From positions 1,500 through 65,499 of the forward strand of contig DASWJN010000069.1 of the NCBI GenBank assembly GCA_036397135.1: a stretch of DNA of 64,000 nucleotides, read 5' to 3'. The notes under the pieces were generated by a model that was not told the origin of the DNA, did no database searches, and saw only the letters and a list, made by a program, of their open reading frames with translations. Positions 2,420 to 62,967 of the stretch are shown here, piece after piece. The DNA is from Candidatus Methylomirabilota bacterium (GTDB lineage: Bacteria; Methylomirabilota; Methylomirabilia; Rokubacteriales; CSP1-6). The position numbers and the translations under genes were made by a program. Position 1 is the stretch's first letter. Each line of letters begins with the position of its first letter.

Positions 2420-3378
2420 GCCGGGATCTCGACCAGCTCAACCGCCTCGCGGCTCGGGCCCTCGATCATCACCGCGCGTGTGTCGCCCAGCCGGTAGGGC
2501 GGCTCGAGGAACGTGACGCCCTCGCGGCGCAGCTTGGCCACCCAGGCGTCGAGGTCGGTGACGCTGAGCGCGATGTGATCGCAGAGGTGCCCGCGCGTGC
2601 TCGCGAGCGCGCGGTCGTCCTGGCGCATGTACCAGGGCAGCGCCACGTCACCGAAGACCACCGCGGCCGACGGCACACGGAACATCCCCTCCCGGTCGAG
2701 CGCCGGCCAGCTCGGCTCGGGCCCGCGCGGCACCGTGCAGGTGACCTCGGTCAGCGGCGTGGGGCTGGTGCGCCCGGCGAAGACCGGCGCGTCGAGGTGC
2801 TTCTGATACCAGAGCTGCGCGCAGAAGGGGTCGTCCTGGTACAGGTGCACGTGGTTGAAGCGCTCGGCCGGGTGGTTGCCCGCGTACTCCACGAGGGCGC
2901 CGTCCGGACCGCGCATGTAGCCGAAGCCGCCGGCGCGCGTGGGCCGGATGCCGCCGGCCCTGGCCTCGGCGATCTGCGCCTTCGTCCGGCCCGGGACGCC
3001 GCCGGTGCCGGGCCAGGAGTCGCTGCTGATCCACACGGAGCCGCCCTCGTCCGTCGTGTAGAGCGGCAGGAGCGCGACGTCCGGCCTGCTCGTGTAGGTC
3101 TCGAGACTCGCGCGCGTGTCGGCGACGTGCCAGCCGAAGTGCCAGATCGCGGTCGGCGGCGACGTCGCGGGTGGCGTGGCGACGCGGGTGAAGAGAACGA
3201 GGACGTCGGTCGGCGCCGCGAGCGCCGGCAGGCCGCCCCAGCTCGTCTTCGCGGACCTGGGAAACTGCCGGACGTAGAAGTCGATCGCGGCATCGGGGTC
3301 GACCGAGTTCAGGTGGAGGTGATGGAAGCCCGGTGTCGGGAGCATGTCGGGATGCGCGGAGTATACTCTGCCCGCCAT
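2416..3378 (-). CDS. VOC (glyoxalase/bleomycin-resistance/dioxygenase) family protein, two-domain
   Basis: ORF 2416..3441 with HHLHLNSVDPDAAIDFY and a second DHIALSVTDLDAWVAKLRREGV module. Start uncertain: MAGRV at 3378, or 3345, or 3441. The stop overlaps the amidase ATG. Confidence 0.7.
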   Translation of the reverse strand: MAGRVYSAHPDMLPTPGFHHLHLNSVDPDAAIDFYVRQFPRSAKTSWGGLPALAAPTDVLVLFTRVATPPATSPPTAIWHFGWHVADTRASLETYTSRPDVALLPLYTTDEGGSVWISSDSWPGTGGVPGRTKAQIAEARAGGIRPTRAGGFGYMRGPDGALVEYAGNHPAERFNHVHLYQDDPFCAQLWYQKHLDAPVFAGRTSPTPLTEVTCTVPRGPEPSWPALDREGMFRVPSAAVVFGDVALPWYMRQDDRALASTRGHLCDHIALSVTDLDAWVAKLRREGVTFLEPPYRLGDTRAVMIEGPSREAVELVEIPA

Positions 3379-4606
3379 CGTGAGTGACGCCGGCCTCCGG
3401 CAGCGTCCGTGGCGGGCGGTCGCGGCAGCCACCGCGCTCAACCTGCCGCTCGGCTCGCTCTACGCGTTCAGCGTGTTCCTGAAACCGCTCGAGACCCTGC
3501 TGGCGCTGAGCCGCGCCGACCTCGCGCTCGTCTTTGCCCTCGCCGCCGCCGGGTTCGGCGCCGGCATGAACCTCGCGCCCCACGTCTACGGCCTCGCGTC
3601 CACCCCGGCGCTGCTGCTGGGCTGCGCGGTCGCGAGCAGCCTGGGCATCGCGCTCGCCGCCACGGCGGGCGGCCTGGTTCAGCTCGCGCTCGGCTACGGC
3701 GTGCTCTTCGGCGTCGGCGGCGGCGCGGCCTACATCCTCGTGCAGCAGGCCGTGAACCTGGCGGTGACGCGCCGCCACGGCCTGGTGAACGGCTACGTCG
3801 TGGCGCTGTACCCGGCCGGCGCCATGATCGCCGCGCCCCTGTTCGGGTGGGCCGTCCGCGAGCTGGGCGTCCGCGTGACGCTCGGCGGACTCGCGACCGC
3901 GCTGGCCGTCACCGGCGCGACGAGCGCGTGGCTGATCGCGCAGTCGGGCGTCACGCTGGCGGCGGCCGGCGCGGCCGCGGTGCCGGACGCTCGAGAGCGA
4001 CGCCGGACGGTGTTCTGGCGGCTGTGGCTCGTCTTCTTCCTGGCGGCGTCCGCCGGGCTGATGGTGCTCAGCCAGGCTGCCGGCATCATCACGGCCTACG
4101 GCGGCGCGACCGCGCTGGCGGTCTATGGCACGACGTTCATCGCCGGCACGATCGCCGCCGCCCGGCTGGCGGGCGGCTGGATGGTCGACTGGCTGAGCAT
4201 TCCCACGCTGGCTGCCGGCGCCCACGCCGTCGCGCTCGCGGGCAACGTGGCGCTGACGCTGTGGCCGGGCCCCGGCGTGTCCGTGCTCGCGCTGGCGCTG
4301 GTGGGACTGGGCTACGGGTTGATCTCCGGCGTCACGGCGGCGGCGGTGGCCGTCTACTGGCGGCGGGCGCTGTACGGGCGCATGGCCAGCCGGATCTACC
4401 TGGCGTGGTGCGCCGCCGCCGTCGTCCTGCCGATCGCCGCCGGCCGCCTGTTCGACCTGACCCAGGGCTATGCCACGGCAGTCCTGATCGCCGCCGGGGG
4501 CAACGTCCTGGGCGTCCTCGTGGCGCTGGGGCTGCCCCGCGAGCGCGCGGCTCGAACCCAGGCCGAGCCCCGGTCGGGCCAGGCGGCGTCGCCGGCCGCC
4601 CGCTGA
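3344..4606 (+). CDS. MFS transporter (oxalate/formate antiporter-like)
   Basis: 12-TM hydrophobic profile. ATG 3344 overlaps the divergent VOC start region; an alternative GTG at 3380 is possible. Confidence 0.75.
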   Translation: MSGCAEYTLPAIVSDAGLRQRPWRAVAAATALNLPLGSLYAFSVFLKPLETLLALSRADLALVFALAAAGFGAGMNLAPHVYGLASTPALLLGCAVASSLGIALAATAGGLVQLALGYGVLFGVGGGAAYILVQQAVNLAVTRRHGLVNGYVVALYPAGAMIAAPLFGWAVRELGVRVTLGGLATALAVTGATSAWLIAQSGVTLAAAGAAAVPDARERRRTVFWRLWLVFFLAASAGLMVLSQAAGIITAYGGATALAVYGTTFIAGTIAAARLAGGWMVDWLSIPTLAAGAHAVALAGNVALTLWPGPGVSVLALALVGLGYGLISGVTAAAVAVYWRRALYGRMASRIYLAWCAAAVVLPIAAGRLFDLTQGYATAVLIAAGGNVLGVLVALGLPRERAARTQAEPRSGQAASPAAR

Positions 4607-49551: not shown

Positions 49552-49830
49552 CTGATGAATCTCGTGAAACGTGGTGACGCCGGGGGCGGGGCACGGGGGC
49601 CCTGCGCGCGCCACGTCGATGGCGAGCCGTCGTCGCCGTGGCGCGCGCTGGGCTCGGCGAGCGCGCGATCGGCGATTCGACTCACTCCGGGCCAGCCCCC
49701 TTCAGGGGATGGGGGGCTCGCGCTCGCCGAGCCCGGCGCGAGCGTACGGCGACCGGCGAGCCATCCGTGGCGCGCGCAGGGCTCCCGTGCCCCGCCCCCG
49801 GCGTCACCGGATTCCACGAGAGTCATTAGC
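49552..49830. mobile_element. MITE-like ~280-bp hairpin element, copy A (~65-bp terminal inverted repeats)
   Basis: Near-identical to 61654-61934. Termini ATGAATCTCGTGAAACGTGGTGACGCCGGGGGCGGGGCACGGGGGCCCTGCGCGCGCCACG ... CGTGGCGCGCGCAGGGCTCCCGTGCCCCGCCCCCGGCGTCACCGGATTCCACGAGAGTCATTAGC. The right end CATTAGC supplies the TAA stop (49826-49828) of the adjacent gene. Confidence 0.8.
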
Positions 49831-55410: not shown

Positions 55411-56433
55411 TCAGGCGAACCACAGGTCGGGCAACGTGTAGCCGCCCCCGAACGGATCGGACGGATCGAGGCCGTGCTGGAACACGCCGGTGATCCACGC
55501 CTGGCCGGCGATGGTGGGGACGATGGCGGGCCTTCCCCCCACCGTGGTCTCGCCGGCGATGCCGGCCTCGAACCGCGAGCCGATGATCGACTCGTGGACG
55601 AACCCCTGGCCCGGGGCCAGCTGCCCGCGCGCGTGCAGGACGGCCAGCCGCGCGCACGTGCCGGTGCCGCAGGGGCTGCGGTCGATGCGGCCGGGCGCGA
55701 CGATCACCGCGTTGCGGCTCACCGTGCCCGGGCCCGCGAACGGCATGGCGAACTCGGTGAAGGTCACGCCCTGGATGTCCGGGTTCTCCGGATGGCGCAC
55801 GGGGAGTTGGAGGGCGGCGGCGGCGGTGATCCGGTGGCCGAGGGCGACCAGGTCGCGCGCCTCCTTCGGCTCCACCGCGAAGCCGAGCGAGGGCGCATCG
55901 ACGATCGCGAAGAAGGCGCCGCCGTAGGCCAGGTCGACCGCGACCGGCCCCAAGCCCTCGACGTCGACGATCGCCCCGAGATGCGTGGCGAAGCACGGGA
56001 CGTTCGTGAACTGCACCCGCTCCACCTTGCCGCCGCGGCAGCTGGCCTCGACGGGCACGGGTCCCGCCGGCGTATCGAGCGTCAGCGCCGTCACCGGCTC
56101 GCGCATCGGGAGCATGCCGGTCTCCAGGAGGACGGTGACGGTGCAGATGGTGTTCGAGCCGGACATCGGCGGATAGTCGGCGGACTCCATGATGATCAGG
56201 CCCGCGTCGCAGTCGGGCCGGGTGGGCGGCGTCACGAGATTCACGCAGAGCGTGGGCTTCCCCCGCGGCTCGAACAGGAGCCAGCGCCGCAGCTCGTCGC
56301 CGTGCGACTCGAGGTAGCGCTTCTTGTCGAACATGGTCGCGCCCGGCGGCGGCAGCACGCCGCCGACGATCACGTGGTTGTCCTCTCCGCCGACGTGGCA
56401 GCCGATCACCGTCACCGTGCGGTCCCATCTCAT
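55411..56433 (-). CDS. proline racemase family protein (4-hydroxyproline epimerase/dehydratase-like)
   Basis: MRWDRTVTVIGCHVGGE...DRSPCGTGTCA, the catalytic Cys motif of proline racemase-like enzymes. Confidence 0.8.
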   Translation of the reverse strand: MRWDRTVTVIGCHVGGEDNHVIVGGVLPPPGATMFDKKRYLESHGDELRRWLLFEPRGKPTLCVNLVTPPTRPDCDAGLIIMESADYPPMSGSNTICTVTVLLETGMLPMREPVTALTLDTPAGPVPVEASCRGGKVERVQFTNVPCFATHLGAIVDVEGLGPVAVDLAYGGAFFAIVDAPSLGFAVEPKEARDLVALGHRITAAAALQLPVRHPENPDIQGVTFTEFAMPFAGPGTVSRNAVIVAPGRIDRSPCGTGTCARLAVLHARGQLAPGQGFVHESIIGSRFEAGIAGETTVGGRPAIVPTIAGQAWITGVFQHGLDPSDPFGGGYTLPDLWFA

Positions 56434-56573: not shown

Positions 56574-58796
56574 GTGGACGACCTCGCCCGGCCCGGGATG
56601 GCGCACGCGGTGATCGTGCGGAGCCCCCACGCCCATGCCCGCGTGCGTCGCGTGGACGCGCGCGGCGCTCTCGCGCAGCCGGGCGTGCTCGCCTGCCTGA
56701 CGGCGGCCGACCTCGCCGGAGTGCCGCCCATCCCCATCCGCGTGGGCGAAAAGCCCGCCCACGCGGCCTACCTGCAACCGCCGCTGGCCGGTGACACGGT
56801 CCGCTACGCCGGCGAGCCGGTGGCGGTCGTCGTCGCGACCGATCGCGCCGGCGCCGTCGACGCGAGTGAGCGGGTGGAGATCGAGTACGAGGTCCTGCCC
56901 CCGCTCGTCGAGGCCGGGGACGCCGAACGGCCCGGGGGTCCGCTCCTCTTTCCCGAAGGCAACGTGGCCGACTCGTGGACCACGGCCCTCGGGGACGTCG
57001 ACGCCGCGCTGCGGGAGGCGGCCTGCGTCGTGCGCGAGCGCTTCTCCGTCGGGCGCCAGACCGCCGCGCCGCTGGAGACCCGCGGGCTGCTGGCCGAGTG
57101 GGATGCCGCATCCGGGCGCCTCACGGTGTGGGGCACGACGAAGGTCCCGTACTTCAATCGCCGGACGCTGGGCGCCATGCTGGGTCTCGAGGAGACGCAG
57201 ATCGACTTCGCGGAGTCGGACGTCGGCGGCGGCTTCGGCGCGCGCGGGGAGTTCTATCCCGAGGACTTCCTCGTGCCCTGCCTGGCCCGGCGCCTGGATC
57301 GCCCCGTCAAGTGGGTGGAGGATCGGCGCGAGCACTTCCTGGCCATCAACCACTCGCGGGAACAGCAGTGGTCGGTCGTGGCCGCCGCCGATGGGCAGGG
57401 GCGGCTGCTGGCGCTCGACGCCAGTCTGGTCAACGTGATGGGCGGCTACCTGCGCACGCACGGCATCTGGGTCGCCGCGCTCGCCGCGTCTTACCTCCCG
57501 GGACCGTACCGGTGGCCGAGCTACCGCTGCCGCGTCTCCTGCGTCATGACGAACAAGACCCCGACGGGGACGGTGCGCGCGCCCGGATTCTACGAGGGCA
57601 CCTTCGTGCGCGAGCGGCTCCTCGACCTGCTCGCCGGGCGCCTCGGGCTGGACCCGGCCGAGATCCGCCGCCGCAACCTGCCCCGGCCGGAGGACGCGCC
57701 GTACACGGTCAACACGGTGGCCTCGGCGATCACCGGGCGCGACGCCGACTTCGCCGGCGAGGACTTCGGCGCGATGTTCGAGCAGGCGCTGAAGGCCGGC
57801 CAGTACGAGGCGCGGCTGGCCGCCTGTCGCGAGCGGAACGCCGCCGGCGGCGACGTGCGGTTCGGCGTCGGGCTGGCGGCGTTCGTGGAGACCTCCGGCA
57901 CCGGTCCGTTCGAGAGCGCGCGGGTGACGCTGACCGCCGAGGGGACGCTCGTGCTGGCGGCGGGGGCCACGTCGGTGGGGCAGGGGATCGCGACCACGCT
58001 CGCGCAGGTCTGCGCCGAGGTGCTTCGAATCCCGCCGGCCGCCATCGCCGTGCACCTGGGCGACACCCGCTTCATGCCTCACGGCGTCGGCAGCTCCGCC
58101 AGCCGTTCGGCGGTGATGGCCGGCAGCGCCGTGCACCACGCGTCCACGCGCCTGCGGGAGCGGATCGTGGCGCTCGCCGCCGCGCACTTCGAGGCGAGCC
58201 CGGCCGACGTCACGCTCCAGGACGGCGCGGCCGTCGTCCGCGGCGTGCCCGATCGGCGCTGCACGCTGCGCGAGGTGGCGGCGCTCGCCGGGGCCCCGCT
58301 GGAGGCGGAATGGCGCCACGAGACGGCGCGCGCCATCGGCTCGTTCGGCGTGCATCTCTCCGTGGTCGGGGTCGACGTCACGACGGGCGAGGTCCATCCC
58401 GAGACGCATTTCGTCCTGTGCGACGTGGGGCGCGCGATCAACCCGACGATCGTGGAGGGCCAGCTGGTGGGCGCGGTGATCCAGGGGCTGGGTCACGCGA
58501 CGATGGAGGAGCTGGTCTACGATCCGGGCGGCCAGCTCCTCACCGGCACCTTCATGGATTACGCGATGCCCACCGCGGGCCGCACGCCGTCCGTCGAGAT
58601 CCAGCTGCACGAAGCGCCGGCTCCCTCGAATCCCCTCGGCGTGAAGGGCGCCGGGGAGGCCGGGACGACCGGCGTCGGCGCCGCCGTCGCCAACGCCGTG
58701 GCCGGCGCGGTCGGCGCCGCCGCCGCCAGCCATCTCCCGGTGACCGCCCCGCGCGTCATGGCAGCGCTCGAAACGTCCCGGCCTCGCGGGTGGTGA
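56574..58796 (+). CDS. xanthine dehydrogenase/aldehyde oxidase family molybdopterin-binding large subunit (CoxL-like), body of the gene after the nonsense codon
   Basis: 740 aa from GTG 56574: ...GGGFGAR...RAPGFYEGTFVRE...GQGIATTLAQ...GAGEAGTTGV. No adjacent small (2Fe-2S) or medium (FAD) subunit genes. Confidence 0.75.
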   Translation: MDDLARPGMAHAVIVRSPHAHARVRRVDARGALAQPGVLACLTAADLAGVPPIPIRVGEKPAHAAYLQPPLAGDTVRYAGEPVAVVVATDRAGAVDASERVEIEYEVLPPLVEAGDAERPGGPLLFPEGNVADSWTTALGDVDAALREAACVVRERFSVGRQTAAPLETRGLLAEWDAASGRLTVWGTTKVPYFNRRTLGAMLGLEETQIDFAESDVGGGFGARGEFYPEDFLVPCLARRLDRPVKWVEDRREHFLAINHSREQQWSVVAAADGQGRLLALDASLVNVMGGYLRTHGIWVAALAASYLPGPYRWPSYRCRVSCVMTNKTPTGTVRAPGFYEGTFVRERLLDLLAGRLGLDPAEIRRRNLPRPEDAPYTVNTVASAITGRDADFAGEDFGAMFEQALKAGQYEARLAACRERNAAGGDVRFGVGLAAFVETSGTGPFESARVTLTAEGTLVLAAGATSVGQGIATTLAQVCAEVLRIPPAAIAVHLGDTRFMPHGVGSSASRSAVMAGSAVHHASTRLRERIVALAAAHFEASPADVTLQDGAAVVRGVPDRRCTLREVAALAGAPLEAEWRHETARAIGSFGVHLSVVGVDVTTGEVHPETHFVLCDVGRAINPTIVEGQLVGAVIQGLGHATMEELVYDPGGQLLTGTFMDYAMPTAGRTPSVEIQLHEAPAPSNPLGVKGAGEAGTTGVGAAVANAVAGAVGAAAASHLPVTAPRVMAALETSRPRGW

Positions 58797-58853
58797 CGGG
58801 CTGGTCCCTGGCCTTCCCCTCCCGTCGGTCGATGGCACCTGCCCGGTGCGGGA

Positions 58854-60129
58854 TTATGACCCGGGCGGCGGTCCGAGCGGCACCAGGTAACCGAGCTGAT
58901 CCGGCAGCAGGCGGCGGATGATCCCGAACCGCACGCGCTCGGCCGCGGGCAGGGCCCAGCGCTCCATGAGCTGCGCCACCGTCGCGCCCCGCCGGGCCAG
59001 GCCGAGGGTGACGGACAGCCCCGCCGGCAGCTCGACCTCGGTCTCCTCGCCGTAGAACGGCTCGTAGCGAAGCCGGAGGACGTCCCGTGCGCACCACGCG
59101 ACGCGCGCGGGCCGCGCGCGCGTGATGCGGCCGTCGCGCACCTGGTAGCGCGTTCGCGCCGTGAGGCCGACCACCGCCAGACGCCGGATCTCCTCGTCAC
59201 GCCAGGGCGGCGGCGAGGGGAGCGCCGGCTTCTCGACGACGAAGCGAAAGAGCGGACTGGCCCGGGCCCCGAGCCAGTACACGACGCGCCATTGATCGAT
59301 GGGGGCCAGCCTCGCGAGCTGGCGGTGGACGCGCGGGCTGTCGAAGTAGCGCTGGGGGTGCCAGTCGGCCGGGCGCGCCCAGCTCCCGAACCGGAAGCCG
59401 CCCGCGCGAACGAAGGCCATGAGCTCGTCGATGTCGAAGTGACGTTCGTGAGGGTGGAGGAGCGTGTCGGCGAAGGTCGGGAGGTCACGCCGCCGCTCCC
59501 GGCCCACCCCCCGCAGTTCCTCGGCGAGAAGGGGCCGACACCGCGATCCGAGCACCGCCCGCAGCAATGTCATGGTGGTCCGCACATCGGGCGCTCGCCC
59601 GGACGCACCGCCCCGGAACGCGCGCGCGCCGTTTCTGAAGTGTTCGAACCCGAGCCGGTGCACGCGGCTGTACAGCATGAGGACGGCGGCGCCGTCCGGC
59701 GCGAGCGCGCGCTCCAGCGTCCGCAGGCCGGACAGGGGGTCCTCGAGGTGATGCAGCACACCGGTGCAGAAGATCAGATCGAAGGCGCCGGTCGCGCGAC
59801 AATCGAGCAGATCGGCGCGCTCGAACCGCACGCTCGCGAGCCCGAGTTGCCGGGCCAGGCGCCGGGCGATCCGCACGCTTTCCCCGGAGACGTCGGTCCC
59901 GATCACGTCGGCCCCGCCGAACGCCAGCGCGATCTGCACCGCCTGCCGGGTCCCGCACCCCGCGACCCAGATTCGCAGTGGCCGGCCGGACAGCGCCCGG
60001 CGCCCGCGCCGGTGCAGGAGCCAGTCGAGCGCGCCGGCGATGCGGCCGGTCGGCTCCTCGCGCTGGAGCTCGACGACCCGCGGGTAGGGGAACGCCGTGT
60101 AGTGGCGCGCGACGCTCCCCGAGACCGCC
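58854..60129 (-). CDS. class I SAM-dependent methyltransferase domain protein; no canonical start before motif I (possibly fused to upstream FliB-family gene through a frameshift)
   Basis: The frame reads ...HYTAFPYPRVVELQREEPTGRIAGALDWLLHRRGRRALSGRPLRIWVAGCGTRQAVQIALAFGGADVIGTDVS (motif I GCGTG), with FDLIFCTGVLHHLEDP downstream. The only ATG/GTG/TTG is the GTG at 59939, after motif I. The frame is open back past the stop (60130) of the upstream gene. Confidence 0.55.
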
Positions 60130-61329
60130 TTACTCGGGCTGGCCGGCCTCAGGGACGTCCTCGACCAGCACCTCGAAATCCACCAGGCGCCGCACGACGG
60201 CGCGGTCGACCTCGAGCCCCGACTCGGCGGCGATCGCGGCCAGCGCCGACCGGGTGGGACGACCGTCGAAGTGGTGGAGGACGTCGCCGAGCGTCCGGGG
60301 AATCACGAGGGGATCGTAGGCCCGGTAGGCGGTCACGCGCAGCCGGTCGGGACCGAGGGGCGCGATCTGCACGGGGCCGACCCGCAGGCGGGCCGGCAAC
60401 GCCTCGGAGCGCAGCGCCCGGCAGGTTTCTTTCACGAGCGCCGCGGCCAGCTCGATCTCGGCGCCCCCCACGCGGGTGACGTCGCTCCAGCTGAAGCGCT
60501 CGACGAGCCGGGCCGACGCCGCATAGAACTCGCGCTCCCGGCCCGCGTAGCGTCCCCAGGCCGCCCGGTGTCGACCGGCGTCCGGCACGCCGTCGAGGTC
60601 GGCGGCCGACAGCCGCGGACCGGTGTCGCGGTCGGGCGGGACGACGATCCGCTCGAGGGCGCCGACGCCCGGGTTCAACTGCAGGACACAATGCGCCACC
60701 AGCGACCGCTCGACGGCCTCCAGCAGGTGGCGGAGCGCGGTCCAGAAGCGATGGCCGACCGTTCCGCGCACGTACTTGCAGAACCACGTCGTGCACGCCG
60801 ACTGGCGGTGGCGCCAGATGCCGCACGTCCCCGTGTCGGGCCGGTAGTGCGGGCAGCGCATCGCGACGCTCCGGCCGAAGGCGTCGGCGGCGTTCCGGTA
60901 GAGCAGGCCATAGGCCGGCGGCTGCGCGAGGCCGGCCGGGGTGACGCCCACCCCCGCCGCGATACGGGCCTCGACCGACGCGCGTCCGGCCGCGGACTCG
61001 GGCGCCCGGTCGAGCAGGATTCGGCCCACGAGAAAGTTGGGCAGGGCCGGCACGTACGTGCAGCACTTGATGCGGGGATCGAAGAAGAGCTCCCCGCCCG
61101 CGACCGGGTGGCGGTCCCTCCCCGCCGCCGGGGTCGGAGGCGGGGCAAGCATGGCGCAGCGGTCGCACGTCGCCTCGGACTCGGCGGGGATGGCGCCCCC
61201 GACGAGGGCCTCGATCCACGGCCGGTACAGCAGCGGGAGCGCGGCCCCCTCCGGGGGACCGCCGGGCCCCGGTGCCGGGCCGCGCCTGCGCGCGTCCCGA
61301 TCACCGGTTCCCGTGGTCCCGCGACTCAC
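60130..61329 (-). CDS. Cys-rich protein of the YkgJ/FliB (CxxCxxCC, PF03692-like; includes flagellin lysine-N-methylase FliB) family
   Basis: GTG (RC 61327-61329) 8 nt after the small-ORF stop. Cys clusters CDRC...KCCTYVPALP and CPHYRPDTGTCGIWRHRQSACTTWFC (compare FliB CPFLDEDRLCSIHKTFGGDALCSTC..YP and family C.IY..RP..CR.FP). The track ORF upstream of 61329 is a translation of the MITE. Confidence 0.6.
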   Translation of the reverse strand: MSRGTTGTGDRDARRRGPAPGPGGPPEGAALPLLYRPWIEALVGGAIPAESEATCDRCAMLAPPPTPAAGRDRHPVAGGELFFDPRIKCCTYVPALPNFLVGRILLDRAPESAAGRASVEARIAAGVGVTPAGLAQPPAYGLLYRNAADAFGRSVAMRCPHYRPDTGTCGIWRHRQSACTTWFCKYVRGTVGHRFWTALRHLLEAVERSLVAHCVLQLNPGVGALERIVVPPDRDTGPRLSAADLDGVPDAGRHRAAWGRYAGREREFYAASARLVERFSWSDVTRVGGAEIELAAALVKETCRALRSEALPARLRVGPVQIAPLGPDRLRVTAYRAYDPLVIPRTLGDVLHHFDGRPTRSALAAIAAESGLEVDRAVVRRLVDFEVLVEDVPEAGQPE

Positions 61330-61337
61330 GACACCAT

Positions 61338-61451
61338 CTACTTGTTGAGCCTGGTCGCGGAGAGTCCGCCCTTGACCGAGCCGCCCTTGGTGACCTTCAG
61401 GTCCGAGAGCTTGACCTTCTTCTGGCCGCCCTTGCCTTTCGTCGACGCCAT
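61338..61451 (-). CDS. small Lys-rich protein (37 aa, KGG-motif-like): MASTKGKGGQKKVKLSDLKVTKGGSVKGGLSATRLNK
   Basis: GGAGGG SD 6 nt upstream of the ATG. An extended -10 promoter lies ~30 nt further upstream. 9 Lys in 37 aa. Tightly coupled (8-nt gap) to the downstream FliB-family gene. Confidence 0.55.
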   Translation of the reverse strand: MASTKGKGGQKKVKLSDLKVTKGGSVKGGLSATRLNK

Positions 61452-61487
61452 CGCACGCCCTCCACGGTAGGGTTTCGGTCGGGCGGC

Positions 61488-61493
61488 ATTCTA
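61488..61493 (-). promoter_or_regulatory. extended -10 promoter element cTGcTAGAAT for the small-peptide operon
   Basis: On the minus strand, ...TTCTGCTAGAATGCCGCCCGACCGAAACCCTACCGTGGAGGGCGTGCG-ATG. It has TGn plus a TAGAAT hexamer. The SD GGAGGG follows. Confidence 0.4.
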
Positions 61494-61653
61494 GCAGAAC
61501 CTCGATGCCTTCGTGTCGGCCAGGGCTCCGCGAGCGTCGGCTATTGTGCGTGGGTGGCCAGCGTCGACTGGAGGACCGCGTCCACCCGCAGCCCGGCGAC
61601 GAAGGCGCCGAGCTCGACCGCCAGCGCCGCCGGGCGGCTCTTGACACAGCGAC

Positions 61654-61934
61654 GCTAATGAATCTCGTGAAACGTGGTGACGCCGGGGGCGGGGCACGGG
61701 GGCCCTGCGCGCGCCACGTCGATGGCGAGCCGTCGTCGCCGTTGCGAGCGCAGGGCTCGGCGAGCGCGCGATCGGCGATCCGACTCACTCCGGGCCAGCC
61801 CCCTTCAGGGGGAGGGGGGGCTCGCGCTCGCCGAGCCCGGAGCGAGCGTACGGCGACCGGCGAGCCATCCGTGGCGCGCGCAGGGCCCCCGTGCCCCGCC
61901 CCCGGCGTCACCGGATTCCACGAGATTCATTAGC
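61654..61934. mobile_element. MITE-like ~280-bp hairpin element, copy B
   Basis: ~95% identical to 49552-49830. Termini GCTAATGAATCTCGTGAAACGTGGTGACGCC... and ...GGCGTCACCGGATTCCACGAGATTCATTAGC. The right terminus supplies the TAA stop (61930-61932) of the esterase gene. Confidence 0.8.
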
Positions 61935-62967
61935 CGAGACGCCGGCGCAGGTAGTCGGCAATCTCCAGCGTGCAGGCCATGCCCTGCGGGATGGCCCTGG
62001 TCAGCATCACGAATGCGTGGATCTGGCCCGGGTACTCGCGGGAGACCACGTCCACGCCGGCCTTGCGCAGGCGATCGCCGTAGGCGCGGCCCTCGTCGCG
62101 CAGCGGATCGAAGCCGGCGGTGACGATCAAGGTCGGCGGCTGGCCGGCGAGGCTCGGCGCGCGCAGGGGAGAGGCACGCAGGTCGGCCTTGTCCATCTCG
62201 CCCCTGAGATATTGCTCCGTGTACCAGACGATGCGGTCGCGCGGGATCACGTGACCGTCCGCCAGGTCCCGGTGCGAGTCCGTGTCGAGCGAGAAGTCGA
62301 CAGCGGGGTAGATGAGGGCCTGGCACGTGGGCACGGGCGTGCCGCCGGCGGCGGCGAGCTGCGAGACGACCGCCGCGAGGTTGCCCCCGGCCGAGTCGCC
62401 GGCCACGGCCACGCGGGCGGGGTCGGCGCCGAGCTCGCCTCCGCGGGCCCGGAGCCACCGATAGGCCGCCACGCAGTCCTCGACGGCGGCCGGGAACTTG
62501 TGCTCGGGCGCCAGCCGGTAGTCCACGGCGACGACGAGCGCGCCCGCGTGCCGGGCCAGCCGCGCACAGACCCCATGATGGGTCTCGAGGTCCCCCTGCA
62601 CCCAGCCACCGCCGTGGAAATACAGCACGGCGGGCGGCGGCGGCCCCGCGGCGCCCGGGCCGTAGACCCGCGCCGGGATCTCGCCGGCGGGCCCCGGGAT
62701 GCCGATGTCCTCGACGCGCGGCAATGGCGGCGCCGGCTCGTCCATCAGCGTCACCATGGTCCGGAGTTGCTGGCGCAGCTCCGGCAACGGCGGAAAGTAG
62801 CCCGGCACGCGGATCGACTTGACGAACTCACCGACGATCTGGGCCTTGGGGTCCATCGTGCGGCTGCCCAGGCGGATGCGGTGACCGTCGAGGAAGCGCA
62901 GCGCCTCCTCCTCGCTCATCGCCGTGTGCGACAGCTCCAGCGGCGGATGCGAGCGTGGCTGGCTCAT
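61930..62967 (-). CDS. alpha/beta hydrolase, HSL-family esterase/lipase
   Basis: LYFHGGGW (HGGG oxyanion motif), GDSAGG (nucleophile elbow), and HAF (catalytic His region). Confidence 0.85.
   Translation of the reverse strand: MSQPRSHPPLELSHTAMSEEEALRFLDGHRIRLGSRTMDPKAQIVGEFVKSIRVPGYFPPLPELRQQLRTMVTLMDEPAPPLPRVEDIGIPGPAGEIPARVYGPGAAGPPPPAVLYFHGGGWVQGDLETHHGVCARLARHAGALVVAVDYRLAPEHKFPAAVEDCVAAYRWLRARGGELGADPARVAVAGDSAGGNLAAVVSQLAAAGGTPVPTCQALIYPAVDFSLDTDSHRDLADGHVIPRDRIVWYTEQYLRGEMDKADLRASPLRAPSLAGQPPTLIVTAGFDPLRDEGRAYGDRLRKAGVDVVSREYPGQIHAFVMLTRAIPQGMACTLEIADYLRRRLG

Follow-up and report, generated by a model that had tools for sequence, protein, structure and literature searches.

A probable RiPP-type gene cluster with a lysine-rich double-glycine peptide, an RRE-fused cysteine-rich protein and a PKMT-type methyltransferase in Methylomirabilota

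We analysed a 64,000-nucleotide stretch of contig DASWJN010000069.1 of a Candidatus Methylomirabilota bacterium, called the window throughout, which carries a group of three genes at 58854–61493. These genes probably constitute a small cluster of the ribosomally synthesised and post-translationally modified peptide (RiPP) type, comprising a double-glycine precursor, a cysteine-rich maturase fused to a RiPP recognition element (RRE) and a separate tailoring methyltransferase of the PKMT type. All three are encoded on the minus strand, in the order peptide, cysteine-rich enzyme, methyltransferase, and the same order is found in the closest relatives (loci L006–L009, with enzymes 74–75% identical to that of the window). 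The assignment draws on this conserved gene order, the fold of the RRE, the leader motif of the peptide, the co-occurrence of exporters in relatives and the homology of the methyltransferase, whose start codon is substituted in the window. The features, numbered by their position in the window, are as follows.

61488–61496, minus strand: extended −10-like box TGcTAGAAT, by direct reading; a possible, unproven promoter of the peptide gene
61458–61463, minus strand: Shine-Dalgarno sequence GGAGGG, 6 nt 5′ of the peptide ATG (GGAGAG in L007)
61338–61451, minus strand: precursor-peptide gene, 37 amino acids (aa), encoding MASTKGKGGQKKVKLSDLKVTKGGSVKGGLSATRLNK; 9 of 37 residues are Lys and the stop codon is TAG
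Peptide residues 1–29: predicted leader, with a Lys-rich N-terminus and the double-glycine-type motif VKLSDLKVTKGGSVKGG
Peptide residues 30–37: predicted core, LSATRLNK
60130–61329, minus strand: cysteine-rich enzyme with C-terminal RRE, 399 aa; GTG start at 61329, TAA stop at 60130–60132
60760–61242, minus strand: N-terminal cysteine-rich domain of the enzyme, approximately residues 30–190, with 8 conserved Cys (C214 lies just past its end)
60160–60396, minus strand: C-terminal RRE of the enzyme, approximately residues 312–390, a winged-helix domain
60150–60152, minus strand: in-frame CTG, a candidate non-canonical start of the methyltransferase inside the end of the enzyme gene, preceded by GAGGA (60158–60162) with a 5-nt spacer
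58854–60122, minus strand: Rv2067c/PKMT-type class-I S-adenosylmethionine (SAM) methyltransferase; 422 codons align with orthologues, followed by the stop
60120–60122, minus strand: lost canonical start of the methyltransferase, TCG where orthologues have GTG
59937–59939, minus strand: GTG, the sole in-frame ATG/GTG/TTG of the methyltransferase, past motif I; it would give a 361-aa product without motif I

A preliminary description of this region had reported a lysine-rich 37-aa open reading frame (ORF) with a strong Shine-Dalgarno sequence, followed after 8 nt by the 399-aa cysteine-rich ORF, and both observations hold. It had recognised neither the double-glycine leader nor the RRE, nor a RiPP or bacteriocin setting. 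Three hydrophobic residues of the peptide precede the glycine pair G28–G29, at V26 (−4), L18 (−12) and L15 (−15); as read from the sequence, this V/L/L spacing before the second Gly-Gly is the pattern of leaders cleaved by C39 peptidases. D17, K27, G28 and G29 are invariant in 12 aligned short-core peptides. At the DNA level, the window gene and its counterpart in L007, the closest relative (peptide MAKKGKGGKKVRLSDLKITKGGAVKGGGLTKPPARLNK), are separated by codon-preserving indels of 3, 3 and 9 nt and by synonymous changes. The peptide gene is found 5–8 nt upstream of the enzyme in all close relatives, a 34-aa peptide gene stands 5 nt upstream of the enzyme in the P0010 locus, and a Vicinamibacterales genome has two tandem peptide genes beside the enzyme. 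The preliminary description had staked its proposal on the small ORF being kept next to homologues of the cysteine-rich protein, and it is indeed conserved there across phyla. Its conservation beside these homologues, the codon-preserving indels and its standing as the only ORF in the window picked out by the strict search described below argue that it is more than a chance reading frame.

To place the peptide in a wider context, we surveyed 83 non-redundant enzyme loci with a strict detector (Shine-Dalgarno sequence, ATG, at least four Lys in the first 25 residues and the motif [VILAM][KR]GG). It returned 53 ORFs at ≤1.5 kb from the enzyme, distributed over 25 loci, at a density of 0.226 per kb compared with 0.038 per kb farther off, where the matches were arrays of the same kind of peptide. 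As a background control, the detector matched once in the 64-kb window (this ORF) and not at all in 37.6 kb of unrelated DNA. A relaxed scan, which also admits acidic canonical leaders (ELSDDQLERVSGG), gave candidates in 43 of the 83 loci, and at ≤2 kb from the enzyme in 34. Among the adjacent small ORFs the leaders are conserved, with 25% Lys, and the cores are highly variable, with a median length of 20 aa. Lysine is present in 90 of 93 cores, where it makes up 12.4% of residues and occupies the last position in 28, and cysteine is present in only 9. The peptides of relatives match curated leader and bacteriocin models (TIGR01847, Nif11, NHLP, XyeA and CTB) only below threshold, on the segment ending in Gly-Gly. 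An earlier suggested resemblance of the window peptide to KGG-repeat stress proteins (PF10685) was rejected, as the 37-aa sequence matched no Pfam family at E ≤ 1.

In many of the double-glycine-leader peptides encoded beside the enzyme, the core is a fragment of Hcp, the tube protein of type VI secretion. L005 encodes five separate peptides, each with its own Met, Shine-Dalgarno sequence and leader (2029–2941 and 4072–4227), and four of their cores match T6SS_HCP (PF05638) at model positions 1–35, 35–66, 86–110 and 87–129; concatenated, these four give an E-value of 2e-14. They do not represent a broken Hcp gene, because each has its own start, Shine-Dalgarno sequence and leader, and because their order is not that of Hcp. 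Cores resembling the Hcp N-terminus (xDIFAKIGDIKGES...) recur immediately next to the enzyme gene in members of the Acidobacteriota, Myxococcota and Gemmatimonadota. Loci with Hcp-fragment peptides include L041 (1422–1577), L045 (11110–12274 and 19216–19758), L032 (18547–19294), L052 (9670–9843), L057 (1292–1444), L068 (9807–9959), L077 (1285–1488), L073 and L089. We found no description in the literature of Hcp sequences with double-glycine leaders. Such peptides could point to interference with the assembly of Hcp-like tubes.

A distinct small ORF is present in multi-peptide loci across phyla, with the pattern ...E[VI]V[LF]LKDLAPRxx[VI]KGGxGKxxFGE... and a basic tail. The part that follows the Gly-Gly is conserved in this group, unlike in the other peptides. 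Examples are found in L005 (4267–4464), L032 (11119–11334), L044 (7302–7442), L045 (11323–11553), L073 (18068–18229) and L079 (17753–17914).

The enzyme of the window has a 100%-identical counterpart, annotated as “hypothetical protein”, in a Methylomirabilota metagenome-assembled genome, and a word-indexed search returned at least 512 relatives. Searching 1.84 billion cluster representatives with a profile identified 1,988 members of the family at E ≤ 1e-3, 1,192 of them at E ≤ 1e-30, nearly all 340–400 aa long and matched over their full length. The family comprises about 2,000 clusters at 50% identity, all unannotated, and reaches the threshold of no Pfam or NCBIfam family. It was located in 247 species-representative genomes, with hosts in the Acidobacteriota, Methylomirabilota, Chloroflexota, Planctomycetota, Myxococcota, Gemmatimonadota, Desulfobacterota and other phyla. 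Invariant or near-invariant residues are C55, C58, K88-C89-C90, C159, C169, C179, C184 and C214, along with a conserved C-terminal block, FDGRPT...VRRLVDF.VL. One cysteine motif had initially been given as C-x8-C-GIW-x6-C-x4-C; the actual spacing is C-x9-C-GIW-x6-C-x4-C. The N-terminal cysteines presumably form a metal or iron-sulfur site.

In the AlphaFold (AF2) model of the enzyme (pLDDT 86, pTM 0.85), a helical region lies between the cysteine-rich N-terminal part and a C-terminal domain of beta-sheet and winged helix, which has the PqqD-like fold that defines an RRE. Foldseek yielded no significant match for the model; those of highest probability were TbiB1, heterocyclases of the TruD/LynD type and TigE. 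In P0417, a 605-aa member of the family found by the profile search, the enzyme not only has its internal RRE-like domain but is also flanked at both ends by a further PqqD domain recognised by Pfam (E 3e-25). Our literature searches found no paper on the catalytic domain of the enzyme and nothing relevant on cysteine-cluster proteins with an RRE or on YkgJ or PF03692 in connection with RiPPs. The passages of a 2025 structure-based RRE survey that matched our keywords report thousands of RREs joined to uncharacterised domains and do not describe this family.

Some loci depart from the simple pairing of one enzyme with its peptides. L011 (10001–12394) and L089 (10001–13491) each have two paralogous enzyme copies interleaved with peptide genes. 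L002 (2018–3133 and 5001–6116) has a second unannotated gene of 371 aa on the opposite strand, which we took as a paralogue; a tblastn search with the enzyme (E ≤ 1e-20) did not match this gene, nor could we recognise a peptide gene there. For P0018 (L005, 2941–4227) and P0016, the enzyme ORF runs without a stop up to the next peptide gene and is called as a protein of 426–428 aa ending in a leader and an Hcp-like core, which is either a natural enzyme–substrate fusion or chance read-through.

Export genes accompany the enzyme in a number of relatives. A full peptidase-C39 ABC transporter is encoded in at least 19 loci, including the short-core loci L022 and L053, and a partial one in L005 (4567–5361). 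Genes for HlyD occur in 18 loci, those for sigma-54 activators in 10, and MacB/FtsX permeases were also observed. The transporters of L047 (6270–9416, minus strand) and L089 (1762–4944, plus strand) are about 1,050 aa long, with two N-terminal cNMP-binding domains followed by Peptidase_C39 and ABC domains. Both are accompanied by HlyD and a sigma-54 activator, and in L047 also by a gene for a PPIase-domain protein. Similarity to the cNMP-binding N-terminus from L005 was seen in 13 further loci. The presence of cyclic-nucleotide-binding domains on the exporter suggests that export of the peptides is regulated. B12-binding radical SAM genes lie beside the peptides in L006, L033 and L062.

The methyltransferase matches the Pfam families Methyltransf_31, 11 and 25 (E about 1e-15). 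The window protein also matches Rv2067c (PDB 8hkr) at E 2.8e-22, and a profile of its family matches Rv2067c at 3e-106 over the full length, spanning the catalytic, dimerisation and C-terminal domains; structurally it is close to Rickettsia PKMT2. Rv2067c is a characterised lysine methyltransferase built of the same three domains, with a substrate trough resembling that of PKMT1/2, enzymes that place methyl groups on many OmpB lysines (PMC10739865). Lysine methylation of the peptide, as envisaged in the preliminary description, would by this homology fall to the methyltransferase and not to the cysteine-rich protein; N-methylation of one or more peptide lysines is most plausibly its role. Support for such methylation is indirect, the best of it coming from this relationship to lysine methyltransferases. 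A 38%-identical relative is encoded in a large RiPP cluster of Hyalangium rubrum (L090, 1–17302). This cluster also encodes a 55-aa double-glycine precursor whose N-terminus is rich in Lys, a C39-peptidase ABC transporter, two HlyD-like proteins, a radical SAM-SPASM enzyme, a LanB-type dehydratase, an ATP-grasp enzyme and a JmjC protein. Another relative, 56–59% identical, stands alone in L091. The peptide–enzyme–methyltransferase triad proposed at the outset forms a unit in L006–L009 and, among the loci surveyed, does not extend beyond this closest clade.

As first described, the stop codon of the enzyme lies inside the methyltransferase frame, which has no stop from a point above 60200 until it ends at 58854, and SAM motif I (VAGCGTRQ) precedes the only canonical start, GTG 59939, from which gene callers start the protein, also for P0121. 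The interpretation placed on this arrangement, a frameshifted fusion or translational dependence on the upstream gene, did not survive comparison with orthologues. In L006–L009 the methyltransferase is a separate 422-aa gene with its own GTG 8 nt past the enzyme stop, starting MQSVARHYTAFPYP..., and other orthologues are 422–426 aa long. Aligning the window DNA with that of L006 revealed no indel; GTG CAG is replaced by TCG GGG. The substituted GTG, the missing indel and the separate orthologues identify this as loss of a start codon, and the fusion was rejected. Over 1,266 nt the frame contains no stop or indel, and its dN/dS against L006 is 0.28, or 0.22 over the 61 codons that precede GTG 59939. 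Lacking a canonical start, the window methyltransferase is either weakly expressed from a non-canonical one, for which CTG 60150–60152 could serve, or recently inactivated.

Upstream of the peptide gene, the preliminary description had proposed a TGn-TAGAAT promoter just inside the boundary of a miniature inverted-repeat transposable element (MITE). The box is present, but it has no −35 partner and is not kept in the DNA alignment with L007. A consensus scan of 58700–62000 found neither a full sigma-70 promoter nor an intrinsic terminator, and a sigma-54 promoter upstream of the peptide gene was rejected by eye, its spacing being unfit. The MITE-like element (61654–61934, 281 nt) has 65-nt terminal inverted repeats that are 94% complementary, with a second copy in the window at 49552–49829. 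It lies 200 nt upstream of the peptide gene, which leaves the −10-like box about 160 nt outside the element.

Taking these data together, we propose the following pathway. The Lys-rich N-terminus and the VKLSDLKV...VKGG segment of the 37-aa precursor would act as leader and LSATRLNK as core. The 399-aa protein would be the conserved maturase, its C-terminal RRE binding the leader, as the fold and the genomic context suggest, while its N-terminal domain, with eight to nine conserved Cys, may hold a metal or iron-sulfur centre and modify the peptide. As a separate tailoring enzyme, the methyltransferase would methylate one or more lysines of the peptide, judging by its homology. In relatives, the peptide would be cut after the Gly-Gly (G29 in the window peptide) and exported by the C39-peptidase ABC transporter with its HlyD partner, and in the nearest relative a B12-binding radical SAM enzyme may add a further step.

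Several observations weigh against this proposal. The N-terminal domain of the maturase is without a solved or annotated relative, whether by sequence or by fold. The window peptide has no Pfam or NCBIfam match at E ≤ 1 and no curated leader model; the cores of its clade, at 4–11 aa, are unusual for an exported RiPP; and lysine richness could simply mean a cationic peptide. About half of the enzyme loci have no peptide gene recognisable by the relaxed scan in the fetched flanks. Using tblastn, we found no C39-peptidase ABC exporter or protease in the 64-kb window. The methyltransferase has no canonical start codon in the window, and across the 83 loci and two more fetched through methyltransferase relatives it accompanies the enzyme only in the window and in L006–L009.

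FliB has historically been grouped with the CxxCxxCC/YkgJ family PF03692, and the preliminary description placed the cysteine-rich protein there. Under that reading it would be a FliB-type [4Fe-4S]/SAM lysine N-methylase acting on the peptide, with the methyltransferase as a fused or coupled partner, an alternative we consider very unlikely. Profile searches lent the family assignment no significant support: PF03692 scored 16.7 bits against the window enzyme (E 0.012; gathering cut-off 23 bits) and remained sub-threshold in the 20 of 39 relatives where it appeared (best E 0.0033), and the curated NCBIfam models gave no FliB match for 39 members at E ≤ 10. Comparison by hhalign with an alignment of real FliB sequences returned a probability of 0.5%, rising to 1.6% (E 0.03) with larger alignments (260 versus 102 sequences), and neither full-length nor N-terminal-only versions were significant. 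In the non-significant alignment CPHY..C..C of the enzyme does fall on CPYL..C..C of FliB, and a single E. coli YkgJ sequence, a weak template, gave an hhalign probability of 8% over 26 columns at the motif G-x-C-x-I-[YW]-x-x-R-x-x-x-C. The very Lys-rich peptides and the eight conserved Cys, the number also found in FliB (PMC8598068), speak for this alternative. However, FliB binds its [4Fe-4S] cluster on a CX4CX3CC motif (PMC8598068), and the spacing here is C55-x2-C58-x30-C89-C90. The FliB proteins we fetched are assigned by precomputed annotation to PF27117. No flagellar genes were present in the gene tables of the window contig and six other loci looked up, and the supposed partner methyltransferase is encoded separately in orthologues, where it starts independently, and is missing from nearly all other loci. 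FliB membership therefore fails, with no significance in Pfam, NCBIfam or hhalign and a different cysteine spacing; a very distant link of the enzyme to the CxxCxxCC superfamily is possible.

The RiPP-type reading must also be set against two others, in which the cluster is either decaying or serves a small molecule. The window copy is a reduced cluster. In addition to the exporter, tblastn found no HlyD, outer-membrane efflux protein or B12-binding radical SAM gene in the 64 kb, and the methyltransferase lacks its canonical start. In L006, a 649-aa B12-binding radical SAM gene (2506–4455, with a match to DUF5825) lies between the methyltransferase and a proline racemase; the window keeps the racemase orthologue (55420–56433, 88% identity) and has at the radical SAM position an unrelated gene on the opposite strand, encoding a molybdopterin-binding subunit of an aldehyde/xanthine oxidoreductase (56574–58796, plus strand). 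The cluster has thus been remodelled. These losses, together with the MITE-like element 200 nt upstream, would fit a remnant that no longer yields a product in this genome and whose ORFs persist because decay is recent. Yet both the peptide gene, with its strong Shine-Dalgarno sequence, and the enzyme gene are intact, and the latter is under purifying selection (dN/dS 0.22 against L006). The 1,266-nt methyltransferase frame is unbroken, its first 61 codons are also constrained, and the 361-aa call is recorded, 100% identical, from a JGI source (P0121). The peptide–enzyme pair likewise stands alone in the P0010 locus and L001, according to the gene table and ORF listing, and L010 and L011 have peptide ORFs beside the enzyme with no exporter, methyltransferase or radical SAM gene found. 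A fully defunct cluster is accordingly unlikely, and a partly inactivated one is a real possibility in this genome. The existence of pairs without an exporter in several genomes also speaks for the third alternative, a pathway like those for PQQ or mycofactocin in which a C-terminal Lys of the RRE-bound peptide is converted by the metalloenzyme and methyltransferases into a small molecule and not into a peptide antibiotic. Conservation of the whole peptide in the window's clade, with a tail of 4–11 aa that often ends in or next to Lys, would be compatible with this, as would companions of methyltransferase type (the class-I enzyme and the B12-binding radical SAM protein). Other clades, however, have arrays of long variable cores along with C39-peptidase ABC exporters, and such exporters are also found in the short-core loci L022 and L053, which makes a cofactor-like product highly improbable.

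A broader proposal, which we advance tentatively, is that the cysteine-rich RRE protein may be the maturase that defines an undescribed but widespread class of RiPPs with Lys-rich double-glycine precursors, many of them with Hcp-fragment cores. It would perform new metal or iron-sulfur chemistry, possibly a FliB-like, cluster-mediated methyl transfer, and in the window's clade would be joined by a PKMT-type methyltransferase, the first of its kind in RiPP tailoring. If the cysteine-rich domain does catalyse a new reaction, it would define a further class of RiPPs, common among soil phyla that are difficult to cultivate. In any case, many “hypothetical proteins” of one large family gain a testable context, with a candidate substrate encoded 8 nt away and an RRE expected to bind it. 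That an Rv2067c/PKMT-type methyltransferase is paired with a Lys-rich peptide suggests that these enzymes, whose family is otherwise known from effectors of pathogens, can have a peptide as natural substrate.

Compared with Rv2067c, the H3K79 methyltransferase of Mycobacterium tuberculosis, and the rickettsial PKMT1 and PKMT2, the window methyltransferase is only about 20% identical, has lost its canonical start and belongs to a peptide-modification cluster, where the others are a secreted effector or modifiers of outer-membrane proteins. The cysteine-rich enzyme resembles Salmonella FliB in its size of about 400 aa, its approximately eight conserved Cys, a motif of the CP[YH][LY]-x-C-x-[IV] type and a Lys-rich candidate substrate. 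It differs in having no significant sequence or profile similarity to FliB and another cysteine spacing, and FliB lacks an RRE, has folded flagellin as its substrate and is encoded next to fliC. The PQQ and mycofactocin systems (PqqA/PqqD/PqqE and MftA/MftB/MftC) likewise combine an RRE and a metalloenzyme with Cys ligands with a conserved peptide of very short length. The enzyme here, however, has neither a CxxxCxxC motif nor a Radical_SAM match and is thus no radical SAM protein, and other clades have variable cores and exporters.

The closest parallel is with RRE-dependent double-glycine pathways such as those of lanthipeptides, NHLP/Nif11 peptides and class II bacteriocins. The present system is set apart from these by an RRE-fused catalytic domain that is seen in no described RiPP enzyme family and is without a structural relative, by leaders with 25% Lys, by the 4–11-aa cores of the window's clade and by a window without an exporter. 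In common with them, its small precursor gene immediately precedes that of an RRE-fold enzyme, its variable cores follow a conserved leader that closes on Gly-Gly and is hydrophobic at positions −4, −12 and −15, its relatives have a C39 ABC exporter with HlyD, and its tailoring enzymes are a methyltransferase and a B12-binding radical SAM enzyme.

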